Source of the DNA: a virus | Virus record (IMG/VR): IMGVR_UViG_3300009079_000013 | Length of the DNA stretch: 64,000 bases | Direction: 5' to 3' (one strand) | Part shown: positions 39,090-42,256 of the stretch, in pieces | How positions within the stretch are numbered: position 1 is the first letter of the stretch | How the letters are laid out: each line of letters begins with the position of its first letter | Translations under genes and position numbers: made by a program | Notes under the pieces: generated by a model | What the model was told of the DNA's origin: nothing | The model's database searches: none | The model's input: the letters and a program-made list of their open reading frames with translations, nothing else

Positions 39090-39399
39090 AAAAGAATTTA
39101 AACCCCTAAAATGTTTTTTAAAATGGTCTTATGGTGAACCAAAACACCCTAAAGAATCTATGACAGAGTTTACCTGGGGTTCAGGTATTAATATGACAAT
39201 TGCGGGACCAGAATTAAAGTTTGATGAAAATACAACATTATCCGAATGGAGACAGTCAGAAATAAAAAAGTGGGAGAATCTTATGGAAGATTTTAATAAA
39301 GATAAAAGAATACAACAGTTAGACTTTAGAATAAACCCAAATAGGAATGATGTCGAAGAAGTTGAATCAGATATTAACTTCATTAAGTGGGTAGATTAA
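39079..39399 (+). CDS. Cassette 2: hypothetical protein
   Basis: 106 aa; ends at the repeat's first TAA. Confidence 0.65.
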   Translation: MMNKKEFKPLKCFLKWSYGEPKHPKESMTEFTWGSGINMTIAGPELKFDENTTLSEWRQSEIKKWENLMEDFNKDKRIQQLDFRINPNRNDVEEVESDINFIKWVD

Positions 39400-39411
39400 A
39401 CCAAAACAAAG

Positions 39412-39672
39412 ATGAGTAAAAAAGACAATAATTTAGAAATGTTATTAGTTGGTTTATTCCCACAAAACAAAATTAAAGTTGATACTGAAATCCACAGTAA
39501 ATTCGGTATGTGTATTGATGTGAATGTTGATGATAAGAAAATAAAATTCAAAATACCAGAAATAGACCCAATAGAAAGGATGATGTTTTCAGTTGAAGAT
39601 TGGGCTATGGAATACAGCCATTTAATCGTGCAGGAAATCAGAAATCAATTAAACCAAAACAAAGATGAGTAA
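39412..39672 (+). CDS. Cassette 3: hypothetical protein
   Basis: MSK...LNQNKDE. Confidence 0.65.
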   Translation: MSKKDNNLEMLLVGLFPQNKIKVDTEIHSKFGMCIDVNVDDKKIKFKIPEIDPIERMMFSVEDWAMEYSHLIVQEIRNQLNQNKDE

Positions 39673-39805
39673 AGAAGAAATTATAGATTCCTTATACGAT
39701 ATATTAGATGAAATAGATGAAACACCAAAGGATGAATTTGTTGATATAGTGTATATTAAAGAAACGCTAGAAAATATAATAAAACAAAACAAAGAAGATG
39801 AGTAA
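39665..39805 (+). CDS. Cassette 4: 46-aa acidic peptide (not in ORF track)
   Basis: MSKEEIIDSLYDILDEIDETPKDEFVDIVYIKETLENIIKQNKEDE. Confidence 0.6.
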   Translation: MSKEEIIDSLYDILDEIDETPKDEFVDIVYIKETLENIIKQNKEDE

Positions 39806-39941
39806 AGATTATTTAGATAAGTCGGAAGAAAGACAAAAGCAGAACATAGAAAAGATTAAACCAAAACAAATGCCACATCCTATTCCTAAATTGAAATGGT
39901 GGCAGATGTTAATAGGAGGATTCAAAGGTAGAAGATATTAA
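39798..39941 (+). CDS. Cassette 5: 47-aa basic peptide with an internal partial repeat (not in ORF track)
   Basis: MSKDYLDKSEERQKQNIEKIKPKQMPHPIPKLKWWQMLIGGFKGRRY. Confidence 0.55.
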   Translation: MSKDYLDKSEERQKQNIEKIKPKQMPHPIPKLKWWQMLIGGFKGRRY

Positions 39942-39956
39942 ACCAAAACAAATAAG

Positions 39957-40172
39957 ATGAGAAATAATATAGAAGACTTATCATTAGAATTAATAAAAGA
40001 CATTAAAAGTTTAGAGGGGTTTAAAAGTTCACTCATAGAGGAAGAACTTATACATAACTTATCAGAAAAATTAGACAATTTAACTAGTGAAGACAAAGAG
40101 GAAAGAATTAAGGCATTACACAATATGTTTGCACTAGGTCAAATATTTACAAACCAAAACAAAGATGAGTAA
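39957..40172 (+). CDS. Cassette 6: hypothetical protein
   Basis: 71 aa, ends TNQNKDE. Confidence 0.65.
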   Translation: MRNNIEDLSLELIKDIKSLEGFKSSLIEEELIHNLSEKLDNLTSEDKEERIKALHNMFALGQIFTNQNKDE

Positions 40173-40335
40173 AGAAATTGAAAAAATAAGTAAGCAATTA
40201 TTTGAACTTAAAGAATGGCTATCTGAACAACCAGGACATCCTAGTCATCTTTCTAATTTACCTCAGTGGTTTTGGGAAGGTTGGGGTGAATGTATAGATG
40301 ATTTAAAACGATTAAGTAAAACAAAACAAAGATGA
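40165..40335 (+). CDS. Cassette 7: 56-aa Trp-rich peptide (not in ORF track)
   Basis: MSKEIEKISKQLFELKEWLSEQPGHPSHLSNLPQWFWEGWGECIDDLKRLSKTKQR. Confidence 0.6.
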   Translation: MSKEIEKISKQLFELKEWLSEQPGHPSHLSNLPQWFWEGWGECIDDLKRLSKTKQR

Positions 40336-40760
40336 GTAAAATTAAAGAAGAGTTAAAACCCGTGAGATTAACAAAAACTGAAACCTGTTTAACTTATGTT
40401 TTAAGACGAATGGGATTAGAGCCTGATTTTTGTACTTATGAAACATTTCATGAACACTTTAATCAATTTACATTTTCTAGGTATCAAAAAAAAATAAAAG
40501 TTGGTGATATTCTTCTATGGGATAAAACTAGTACATGGGAATGGTTACCTTGGACTATAAATGACAACGGTATTATTGAATGGAAAAATATACCAGTAGG
40601 ATTTCATTTTGCAATATATGAAGGTGATGGTATGTTTAGTGATTGTACAAGACTAGTAACGCCACCACATCCCACACTTAGATTAAGAACAATGACAGAC
40701 TTGCAAAAGAACCCAGATTTTGTATTAAGATTAGAACTAAACCAAAACAAAGATGAGTAA
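40332..40760 (+). CDS. Cassette 8: putative NlpC/P60-like Cys-His peptidase
   Basis: ETCLTYV...VGDILLW...GFHFAIYEGDG order of Cys, GD and His. Confidence 0.45.
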   Translation: MSKIKEELKPVRLTKTETCLTYVLRRMGLEPDFCTYETFHEHFNQFTFSRYQKKIKVGDILLWDKTSTWEWLPWTINDNGIIEWKNIPVGFHFAIYEGDGMFSDCTRLVTPPHPTLRLRTMTDLQKNPDFVLRLELNQNKDE

Positions 40761-40950
40761 AGAAGAAGATAAGGAATTAGTCAGCAGGTTACTAAAAGCA
40801 GCTAACGAAATTCATAAGAAAGGATTAGCTAAAGCAAATTATATACATCTACCAGCAAAATTCATACAACAACGAGCAGACGAAGAAGGAGTTACATTTG
40901 ATGAAATGGTAAAGATAATTGAAGAAGAGATTAAACCAAAACAAAGATGA
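40753..40950 (+). CDS. Cassette 9: hypothetical protein
   Basis: MSK...KPKQR. Confidence 0.6.
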   Translation: MSKEEDKELVSRLLKAANEIHKKGLAKANYIHLPAKFIQQRADEEGVTFDEMVKIIEEEIKPKQR

Positions 40951-41159
40951 GTAGAGAATATATTAAAGAACAATACCAACATCTACAATTATTAAGTAGC
41001 AACATAACACCAACAAGACCAGGTGTGGGATCCTATGTAACTGTAGATGGATTAGAAATATCTGAAGACTATTTTCCAGAAGAATTTGAACAAATAGAAA
41101 ATGCCTGGGATAGTGTTGCTAAAAAAATAAAAGAACTAAACCAAAACAAAGATGAGTAG
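40947..41159 (+). CDS. Cassette 10: hypothetical protein
   Basis: MSR...LNQNKDE. Confidence 0.65.
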   Translation: MSREYIKEQYQHLQLLSSNITPTRPGVGSYVTVDGLEISEDYFPEEFEQIENAWDSVAKKIKELNQNKDE

Positions 41160-41379
41160 AGGAGAATTTGCAGTATCACCCCAAGTTGCTAAAGTACTTA
41201 GTGATATACAACAAAGAGAAGAAGATTTTATTAAAGGTAAATCTATAAAAGTAGAAGAATGGGACCTCGAAGACATTCAAAAAGAATATGAACTTATTCT
41301 TAAAAAAGAGAGTAAACTCTCGTCTAACAATAGAAAAAAGATTTTAGAAATATTAAACCAAAACAAAGAAGATGAGTGA
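41152..41379 (+). CDS. Cassette 11: hypothetical protein
   Basis: MSR...LNQNKEDE. Confidence 0.65.
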   Translation: MSRGEFAVSPQVAKVLSDIQQREEDFIKGKSIKVEEWDLEDIQKEYELILKKESKLSSNNRKKILEILNQNKEDE

Positions 41380-41638
41380 AGAAGAAATAAAAACACTTAG
41401 ACCATCATTCAAATTTGGAGGAATGATTATGACTGATTGGTTTGAAGTTTCAGAAGGTAAAGGATATTGTATAATAAGAAGTGGATTAAAACACGCTGAT
41501 GGTATTACAAAATCACCTTATCATTATGAATATTTCAAAGGTGGTAACAATGCAACAAATGAAGTTTTAAACCATTTTAATAATTGGTGGAAACTATTAA
41601 ACCAAAACAAAGATGAGCAAAGGAGAATGGATATTTGA
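41372..41638 (+). CDS. Cassette 12: hypothetical protein (reads through a mutated repeat stop)
   Basis: ...LNQNKDEQRRMDI. Confidence 0.65.
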   Translation: MSEEEIKTLRPSFKFGGMIMTDWFEVSEGKGYCIIRSGLKHADGITKSPYHYEYFKGGNNATNEVLNHFNNWWKLLNQNKDEQRRMDI

Positions 41639-41807
41639 ATACAAAAATCATACCTATCATCTACAAGACAGAGATGATAGTTTTAAGAAAGGAGATTTGT
41701 TTTTTGAAAGATCAGGTAGATTAGGTCCTATTGAATGGGACGGTAAGGGACAACTTAACTATCATTGTAAAAAAATAGTAAGTATTAAACCAAAACAAAG
41801 AAGATGA
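41613..41807 (+). CDS. Cassette 13: hypothetical protein
   Basis: MSK...KPKQRR. Confidence 0.65.
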   Translation: MSKGEWIFEYKNHTYHLQDRDDSFKKGDLFFERSGRLGPIEWDGKGQLNYHCKKIVSIKPKQRR

Positions 41808-42028
41808 GTAAAGATGAAATAATAGATGGATATACCTTTAAGTATAATTCAGAAAATAAATTCTACGAATGTAGAGGAGATGTTTGTTATGATGATGAAC
41901 ATGATGAAGTACCTGAAAAGGGACTTTGGGATGCAGCACATAAGCTTGAACATAAATTAAAGAATCAAGGTATTGATTGTGATGTAGAGCATTCTGAAAA
42001 AGGTTGGGTAGAAGTATGTATAAACTAA
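41804..42028 (+). CDS. Cassette 14: hypothetical protein
   Basis: MSKDE..., 74 aa. Confidence 0.65.
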   Translation: MSKDEIIDGYTFKYNSENKFYECRGDVCYDDEHDEVPEKGLWDAAHKLEHKLKNQGIDCDVEHSEKGWVEVCIN

Positions 42029-42043
42029 ACCAAAACAAAAAAG

Positions 42044-42256
42044 ATGAGTAAAACTAATTACCAACCCTTAATATGTTCAGATAAAGAACTAAAGGAGATA
42101 GCAGAACATTGGTGTGTTTTAGTTGGTGAAAAACCAACAGCATCAATATTAAATGCGTTTATAATGGGAGCAAAAATAGCCGTATCTAATAACGGATGGA
42201 TAGTAAATAAAGACAGTAATGAAGATGATTTTGACTACGAATCGGGGATGTGCTAA
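42044..42256 (+). CDS. Cassette 15 (last): hypothetical protein
   Basis: MSKT..., 70 aa; no repeat at its 3' end. Confidence 0.6.
   Translation: MSKTNYQPLICSDKELKEIAEHWCVLVGEKPTASILNAFIMGAKIAVSNNGWIVNKDSNEDDFDYESGMC

Follow-up and report, generated by a model that had tools for sequence, protein, structure and literature searches.

A 24-nucleotide stop/start joint between small genes in marine T4-like phages and its likely role as the boundary of mobile cassettes

The stretch of DNA considered here, referred to as the window, is the 64,000 nucleotides (nt) of IMG/VR virus record IMGVR_UViG_3300009079_000013. It is phage DNA with a G+C content (GC) of 30%, which encodes a T4-type portal protein at 31380-33110 (Portal_T4, 3.5e-62) and also a UvsW-like helicase. 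In the current analysis we have examined an array of small open reading frames (ORFs), referred to as cassettes, in which a 24-nt sequence, T-AAACCAAAACAAAG-ATG-AGT-AAA, closes one small ORF and opens the next. This sequence is referred to as the joint and its positions are numbered relative to the ATG. A search with the 24-mer at up to 3 mismatches has identified 9 matches in the window against 0.00 expected, and direct reading of the letters adds variants longer by 3 nt (+3), one degenerate copy and one internal partial copy, which brings the number of junction copies to 16. All 16 lie on the plus strand between 38946 and 42052 and none is found in the remainder of the 64 kb. Each interval between joints in the window is one full ORF. 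The features of the locus are the following.

36776-38948, plus strand: Nei/Fpg-like glycosylase and ATP-dependent DNA ligase (Pfam Fapy_DNA_glyco 4.6e-17, DNA_ligase_A_M 3.2e-17)
38946-38969, plus strand: joint 1, with 2 mismatches; ATG at 38961 (24-mer search and reading)
38961-42256, plus strand: array of 15 mutually unrelated small ORFs of 42-142 residues, head to tail
39068-39090, plus strand: degenerate joint; ATG at 39079; stop of the upstream ORF at 39087-39089, in the third frame (direct reading)
39397-39420, plus strand: canonical joint; ATG at 39412; upstream ORF ends at the first TAA (24-mer search)
39650-39673, plus strand: canonical joint; ATG at 39665; upstream ORF ends at the third-frame TAA (24-mer search)
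39780-39806, plus strand: +3 (AAG) variant of the joint; ATG at 39798 (reading)
39857-39872, plus strand: internal partial copy without AG (spacing of -2); ATG at 39870 (reading)
39939-39965, plus strand: +3 (TAA) variant, without third-frame stop; ATG at 39957 (reading)
40150-40173, plus strand: joint with C replacing the first T; ATG at 40165 (24-mer search)
40317-40340, plus strand: joint with 1 mismatch; ATG at 40332; upstream ORF ends at the TGA (24-mer search)
40738-40761, plus strand: canonical joint; ATG at 40753 (24-mer search)
40932-40955, plus strand: joint with AGTAGA, third-frame stop TAG; ATG at 40947 (24-mer search)
41137-41160, plus strand: joint with AGTAGA; ATG at 41152 (24-mer search)
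41354-41380, plus strand: +3 (AAG) variant with AGTGAA, third-frame stop TGA; ATG at 41372 (reading)
41598-41621, plus strand: joint with AGC, third-frame stop lost; ATG at 41613 (24-mer search)
41786-41812, plus strand: +3 (AAG) variant; ATG at 41804 (reading)
42026-42052, plus strand: +3 (AAA) variant; ATG at 42044, the start of the last cassette, which ends at 42256 (reading)

The 15 ORFs of the array are mostly acidic and hydrophilic, and their comparison with Pfam and PHROGs has given nothing above threshold and no confident family. Close homologues of several of them occur as single cassettes in other phages. An origin of the array by tandem duplication and divergence was considered and rejected; the window cassettes have only the tails encoded by the joint in common. 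The ATG at 39870, in the internal partial copy, is in frame with the ORF beginning at 39798, so that two cassettes are fused there. The ORF at 41372-41638 is extended by six residues (QRRMDI) because codon 2 at the next joint is AGC. The stop codon of the ligase is the TAA of joint 1.

It had been noticed in the preliminary description of this DNA that the joint holds stop codons in three different frames, namely the first TAA, the TGA of the ATGA overlap and a third-frame stop at +6 to +8, and that all three are used. This is borne out in the window and in 188 junctions of other phages. Four upstream ORFs of the window (the ligase and the ORFs beginning at 39079, 39798 and 41804) end at the first TAA, three (40165, 40753 and 41613) end at the TGA, and eight run in the third frame, seven of which stop there, the exception being 41372-41638; these are the counts originally given. 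Among the 188 junctions, 41 upstream ORFs run in the frame of the first TAA (frame A), 49 in that of the TGA (frame B) and 98 in the third frame (frame C). Those of frame A stop at the TAA at -15 in 40 of 41 cases and those of frame B at the TGA in all 49, and 66 of the 98 in frame C stop at +6, the remainder running 1-5 codons further. The ATGA overlap is used by 26% of the upstream ORFs and the other stops are situated at most 15 nt from the AUG.

The joint is constrained as a nucleotide sequence, whatever frame the upstream ORF uses. In 163 unique copies collected from other contigs the conservation spans -15 to about +9, beyond which background is reached in 1-2 nt on either side, and a three-base periodicity begins after the ATG. 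The T at -15 is kept in 78% of the junctions where it is not used as a stop. The ratio of AGT to AGC at codon 2 is 137:4 at joints, compared to 275:134 in the other genes of the phage (p=1.6e-15).

Of the three stops, that of the third frame is the weakest. In a less biased set of 63 copies, drawn from seven arrays and detected independently of codon 2, the TAA is present in 51, the TGA in 61 and the third-frame stop in 38 (about 60%), and the window with 9 of 10 copies lies at the high end. Junctions whose upstream ORF depends on the stop at +6 keep it in 72% of cases, and the others in 62%. The preliminary description had held that cassettes beginning with MSR or MSE keep the third-frame stop in altered form. 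They do so in the window, as TAG or TGA, and selection need not be invoked: when the third codon departs from AA the stop survives in about two thirds of cases, which is the proportion predicted if TAA changes to TGA or TAG by A-to-G transitions alone. In DNA so rich in AT an off-frame stop is met every 7-10 codons, so that a missing third-frame stop costs only a few residues. It had also been proposed that any fragment placed between two joints would obtain an MS(K) start and a guaranteed stop; the start codon is indeed supplied, and in two frames the stop as well.

A similar qualification applies to the length of the joint, for which variants of +3 alone had been described. This holds in the window (AAG three times, TAA and AAA once each) and fails in other phages, where copies that do not differ by a multiple of three (3n) are present. 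Copies found with an exact upstream anchor number 240 for a spacer of 4 nt, 32 for one of 7 nt, 1 for one of 10 nt and 3 for spacers of 1-3 nt. About 10 copies at -1 emerge if the A4 run may bear a deletion, to be compared with 34 variants of 3n. The bias towards 3n is real. The spacer is coding for 78% of the upstream ORFs (frames B and C), so that such a bias is to be expected anyway, and most of the +3 cases are one AAG duplication. In a contig fetched through a protein rather than through the motif (L154, 1098-2744), all the motif-type joints are of the +3 form with AAAGAAG before the ATG; the +3 events are therefore not independent, and this pattern suggests concerted evolution, or homogenisation, of joints within a genome. 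Selection for stop retention (p=0.16 for the stop at +6) or for 3n indels above the neutral expectation, the check suggested with the first account of the joint, is thus not demonstrated.

The joint has a wide representation in viral metagenomes. The exact 19-mer AAACCAAAACAAAGATGAG is present in at least 117 IMG/VR stretches, and a relaxed search has recovered 275 copies as against 5 in shuffled sequences, with a median spacing of 243 nt and one strand per array. Four large phage genomes of 156-380 kb encode 8-25 copies each, in one or two arrays. A T4-type portal has been identified in all four (4 of the 5 large contigs examined) in addition to the window, and the arrays occupy different genome positions in different phages. 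A blastn comparison of the array with 50,697 cultured or deposited phages gave no match, a 31-nt query with the joint gave only chance-level matches to deposited phages, and no paper with the joint motif was found in the searchable literature. Flavobacterium phage immuto has a syntenic cluster of small ORFs with only one truncated copy of the joint, and none was found in Tenacibaculum phage PTm1 and the uncultured LR756500, which indicates that the joint is an accessory feature of some lineages and not a core signal. The truncated form, AAACCAAAACAA-ATG without AG, lies at 17056-17070 of immuto (MW353175.1, L153), at the start of immuto26A_23, and is the same as that fusing two cassettes at 39857-39872 of the window.

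The same 19-mer has only 23 occurrences in 185,579 prokaryote species (one genome each, 596 Gb). These were rejected as evidence of the host, being mostly chance singles or matches on small low-GC contigs of metagenome-assembled or single-amplified genomes. Three of the 23 belong to one conserved host gene of Eudoraea whose start region happens to match (L118, L124, L129). The 19-mer lies there at the start of a chromosomal gene and is preceded by GG rather than T; the gene has 592 codons' worth of residues in two complete copies, and the third copy runs off a 2-kb contig. The Eudoraea 19-mer is probably a chance match kept by descent, and the case shows that the joint sequence is able to serve as a start region in a flavobacterium. 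The single-cell assembly of Prochlorococcus sp. AG-409-L21 includes a 64-kb contig of 28% GC (QCKH01000009.1, L125) with a phage-type joint, a degenerate second copy 98 nt away and 7 larger ORFs without a Pfam family. It looks like a phage contig co-sorted with, or infecting, the Prochlorococcus cell.

The cassettes are under purifying selection and are real conserved genes. ORFs starting at the joint have a median length of 63 residues, compared to 11 for random ATGs, and the ratio of nonsynonymous to synonymous substitution rates (dN/dS) in the cassette families has a median of 0.195, with values under 0.5 for 19 of the 22 clusters. A crude motif finder places one ORF in 97 of 162 intervals between joints, a figure that underestimates the true number since the finder misses +3 and degenerate joints. 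The family of the 74-residue cassette beginning at 41804 comprises at least 188 clusters at 90% identity, and their length is almost always 73-80 residues. Its closer members (77-82% identical) lie in arrays, are flanked by joints and start with MSK or MTK, and the more remote ones (62-67% identical) occur elsewhere in phages as ordinary genes, with unrelated start regions. The joint has thus imposed an MSK/MTK N-terminus on a gene family whose relatives outside arrays start otherwise, and the comparison indicates that it was added to genes existing independently, so that genes and not random DNA were captured. One of the distant homologues outside arrays (L155/L156) is followed at 2744-2790 by a GC-rich terminator-like hairpin (GGCAGCAC...GTGCTGC), which implies a stand-alone transcription unit, unlike the members in arrays.

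The 275 cassette ORFs identified in this manner fall into 213 sequence clusters, and families that recur adjoin different neighbours. The comparison took in homologous pairs from different contigs, each having 200 nt of flank or more on both sides. In 40 of the 62 pairs the DNA homology begins 8-26 nt before the ATG, which is at the joint, and in 31 of the 62 it both begins and ends at the joint, with identities from 68% to 98.8%; the length of the ORF is unchanged in 24 of these 31. Shared cassettes are exemplified by pairs with 98.8% identity over 335 nt and 98.3% over 172 nt. A cassette of the window shares 93.4% identity over 227 nt with one on contig L051, and matches of 77-83% are seen to the large genomes G004, G002 and G001. 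The most extensive case is provided by G004 (156 kb) and G002 (380 kb), which have five cassettes of 96-98% identity in the order a-b-c-d-e in the one and d-e-b-a-c in the other, with no other DNA similarity in the 18-19 kb around them. The portal proteins of the array-bearing phages are 19-37% identical (37% between G004 and G002, 23-32% between the window and G001-G004). The pattern of exchange is thus evident in the data, and on comparison of the DNA single genes appear to be swapped between phages exactly at the joint.

Two side observations concern the distribution of the cassettes. G002 (IMGVR_UViG_3300030102_006934) has two arrays, at 89.7-92.3 kb and 375-380 kb, which have in common a 98-residue cassette (about 95% identity) and several shorter pieces, and this points to exchange between arrays inside one genome. 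The cassette at 39665-39805 encodes a strongly acidic protein of 46 residues (net charge about -11.5), and belongs to the family that is shared most widely in this sample, its 7 members occurring in differing contexts. In two other seawater metagenomes the summed contig depth is by far the highest in its bin, reaching 637 in run X12 against 18-62 in the bins beside it. The protein may act as a common small effector.

In those two other seawater metagenomes, single cassettes of the window are represented by contigs that terminate at joints. The summed depth differs 10-30 fold between adjacent cassettes, the ligase is represented by one stray piece and nothing is seen past 42300; parts uncovered in runs X12 and X17 were not taken as evidence of absence. 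Contigs of run X9 (record 29, 40542-41209) span three consecutive joints in the order of the window. The many apparent joins in the read data have sides of 20-36 nt which consist of the repeat itself, and they were not counted as rearrangement. The RNA run X20 has given only pieces of 40-85 nt with 2-5 mismatches, by which no transcription of the window phage is demonstrated.

The joint has the properties of a start region that functions without a Shine-Dalgarno sequence. It has A at -3, -6, -12 and -13, it contains no Shine-Dalgarno sequence and no extra AUG nearby, and it is unpaired in the predicted RNA fold. In Flavobacterium johnsoniae adenines at -3, -6, -12 and -13 are known to raise translation, and the ribosomes ignore Shine-Dalgarno sequences (Baez et al. 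2019, PMC6847099). A Shine-Dalgarno-like motif has been identified in only 2 of the 52 long genes of the window, whose upstream regions are A-rich but degenerate. The joint has in addition invariant C residues at -5, -10 and -11 and an invariant G at -1. A scan for sigma-70-type promoters over 36000-43500 found 33 sites against 36.7 expected, none tied to joints; terminator-like sites numbered 3 against 3.1 expected, none of them at a joint, and a comparison of 36000-44000 with Rfam gave no match.

The nearest relatives of the portal are Mahaphage-type uncultured phages, Prevotella Lak phages and Tenacibaculum PTm1, and the core genes of G004 are 70-74% identical in nucleotide sequence to those of Flavobacterium phage immuto and of Cellulophaga phages. 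The exchange of cassettes further implies shared hosts. Taken together, these relationships suggest that the host is likely to be a member of Bacteroidota, and the array-bearing marine T4-like phages most likely infect Flavobacteriia. The Bacteroidota -33/-7 promoter pattern has 3 matches against 3.2 expected and is uninformative on the host.

Among the neighbouring features, the glycosylase and the ligase are probably co-transcribed with the array. They were considered as array-linked enzymes and rejected, this neighbourhood being not conserved in the other array-bearing phages. The GC rises to 0.43 in 62001-64000 of the window as against about 0.30 elsewhere.

We therefore propose that the joint is a stop/start adaptor that bounds mobile mini-gene cassettes and serves both as a start region without a Shine-Dalgarno sequence and as a portable patch of homology, a reading to which we assign a probability of about 0.68. 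The idea of an adaptor, already present in the preliminary description, gains support from the conservation at the nucleotide level in any upstream frame, from the supply of the start codon and from the exchange of whole genes at the joint. The array would be expressed as one polycistronic message, in which each joint would act as an unstructured, A-rich start region of the type used by Bacteroidia ribosomes. The end of the upstream ORF falls within a span from 15 nt before the AUG to 8 nt after it, and ribosomes could thus terminate and re-initiate, or could bind afresh. Since the cassettes of many phages all have these 24 nt on both sides, recombination between joints could insert, delete, permute and transfer single cassettes, either within one genome or between co-infecting phages. 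The presence of the start codon and of the stops of at least two frames inside the patch means that a crossover would leave both the neighbouring ORFs intact in any frame. The route is probably that of phage RecA/UvsX-type machinery or of template switching; RecA-family ORFs are encoded in both the near-complete array-bearing genomes. No dedicated machinery has been found in our searches, and the joint is hence taken as a start region and a patch of homology for general recombination. It might be maintained by its translational use, by the spread of only those cassettes whose joints are intact and by homogenisation within a genome.

Several considerations weigh against this proposal. Immuto, the closest cultured relative, has the cluster without the joint, which is therefore dispensable for that lineage, and 24 nt is short for efficient homologous recombination by T4-type enzymes. 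Crossovers at the joints, like expression and coupling, are deduced from the DNA sequences. Generic A-rich starts serve the other genes of the phage, so that translation by itself leaves the invariant C and G residues unexplained. Finally, all the arrays come from short-read metagenome assemblies, in which the repeat could cause chimeric joins. The identity of shared cassettes at 93-99% and not 100%, the recurrence of arrays in separate samples and the unitigs that cross joints argue against such joins. A more far-reaching form of the proposal, according to which the joint is a selected, integrase-free cassette adaptor, comparable to an integron acting at the level of translation in marine Flavobacteriia phages, whose sequence selection for portability has shaped so as to unite a start codon, stops in all frames and a Shine-Dalgarno-less start region in one patch, and which defines a pool of hundreds of ORFan mini-genes circulating among family-distant lineages, is advanced only tentatively and at less than even odds.

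The foremost alternative is that the joint functions chiefly as the operator of a phage factor acting in trans, for instance a translational repressor or an endoribonuclease similar to RegA or RegB of T4, that co-regulates the mini-genes, the shuffling being a passive by-product. The invariant C at -5, -10 and -11 and G at -1, which a generic A-rich start does not need, make a specific binding partner possible, and the joint is carried only by array genes and not by the other genes of the same phage. RegA sites of T4 cover the AUG, as the joint does. Against this, RegA (PF01818) and RegB (PF10715) were not found in four array-bearing genomes, in searches that had no working positive control and are weak evidence, and comparison of the array neighbourhoods across phages has revealed no gene common to them. 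An operator also leaves unexplained why close homologues of a cassette have the joint at both ends and distant ones have none. We consider it unlikely that regulation is the main function of the joint.

The precision of the cassette boundaries, the identity of the joint in phages whose DNA is otherwise unrelated and the permuted order of cassettes, as in integrons, could also be accounted for if the joint were recognised by a site-specific enzyme dedicated to moving the cassettes, either integron-like or a homing-type nuclease. Such an enzyme appears improbable. No inverted repeat or hairpin potential has been detected in the array or in the joint, and tyrosine recombinases (PF00589) are absent from the four array-bearing genomes in a search whose positive control recovered 14 of 14 and which did not extend to serine recombinases and homing nucleases. 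No gene is conserved beside the arrays, the positions of which differ among genomes.

It had been suggested in the preliminary description that the joint equips any captured DNA fragment with a start, an all-frame stop and coupling, and could in this way turn captured DNA into expressed peptides and favour de novo gene birth. The use of stops in all three frames, the imposition of an N-terminal MSK and of C-terminal tails (NQNKDE, KPKQR) on unrelated proteins and the 174 singletons among the 275 cassette ORFs of this sample are in accordance with the suggestion. Evidence against it is provided by the full-length ORFs, by the dN/dS of about 0.2 with purifying selection in 19 of 22 families, and by the constant length of the large 41804 family and its relatives outside arrays. 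The third-frame stop, moreover, is missing from about 40% of copies, its retention fits mutation bias, and off-frame stops are frequent in any case. Gene birth from captured fragments is accordingly a very improbable explanation.

The least probable explanation is that a short repeat misled the metagenome assemblies and so created the apparent exchange and permutation of cassettes. It finds some encouragement in the short-read origin of the data, in Logan contigs of other runs that break at joints and in the many short-sided joins that connect one joint to another, and is contradicted by shared cassettes that differ by 1-7% and more and so are not copies of the same reads, by identical arrays assembled from separate samples (L031/L041; L019/L089), by the X9 contigs that cross three consecutive joints of the window and by the behaviour of assemblers, which on meeting a branch point usually break off instead of joining.

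Small ORFans, the origin and traffic of which are unknown, make up the majority of phage genes. A tag of 24 nt that marks a whole pool of such genes reveals their movement, gene by gene, between phages that have almost nothing else in common. It provides a handle for cataloguing the accessory gene pool in marine viromes, for measuring the gene flux between phage lineages on the same hosts and for studying Shine-Dalgarno-less starts and stop/start coupling in a tractable Flavobacterium system. The joint might also serve as a natural part for stacking genes in Bacteroidota.

The joint shares features with several known systems. Overlaps of the type ATGA and TAATG are a feature of stop/start coupling in polycistronic operons; ordinary coupled junctions, however, are not conserved past the overlap and are not common to unrelated gene pairs or genomes. 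The Shine-Dalgarno-less 'Kozak-like' starts of Bacteroidia (PMC6847099) resemble the joint in being A-rich and unstructured, with A at -3, -6, -12 and -13. Those of the host and of ordinary phage genes are degenerate, whereas the joint has every letter fixed, the three C and one G among them, and is absent from host genomes save for chance matches. Like the joint-bounded arrays, integrons consist of unrelated promoter-less small genes on one strand with a common bounding site, a permuted order and sharing across unrelated replicons. The joint differs in the lack of an attC-like hairpin and of any IntI-type tyrosine recombinase found with it, and in that it overlaps the coding sequence and holds the start codon.

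The closest described system is that of the promoter-early stem-loop (PeSL) cassettes of T4-type phages (Arbiol et al. 2010, PMC2839356; Comeau et al. 2014, PMC4122927). There too, short repeats flank small and mostly ORFan genes in the variable regions of T4-like phages, and the repeats are the breakpoints of insertions, deletions and replacements, for which homologous recombination without a dedicated recombinase has been proposed. Excised circular intermediates of PeSL cassettes are reportedly detectable in infected cells. A PeSL is made up of an early promoter and a terminator hairpin situated between genes, whereas the joint has neither of these and leaves no intergenic space, being a translational stop/start overlap of 24 nt. 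The exchanges reported in the second of these papers (PMC4122927) are between pairs of closely related phages, whereas the joint is identical across phages with the low portal identities given above, a divergence of family-like depth. By this analogy the joint can be regarded as the translational counterpart of the T4 PeSL cassettes, which would carry the PeSL idea beyond transcription signals, to a joint of purely translational nature.

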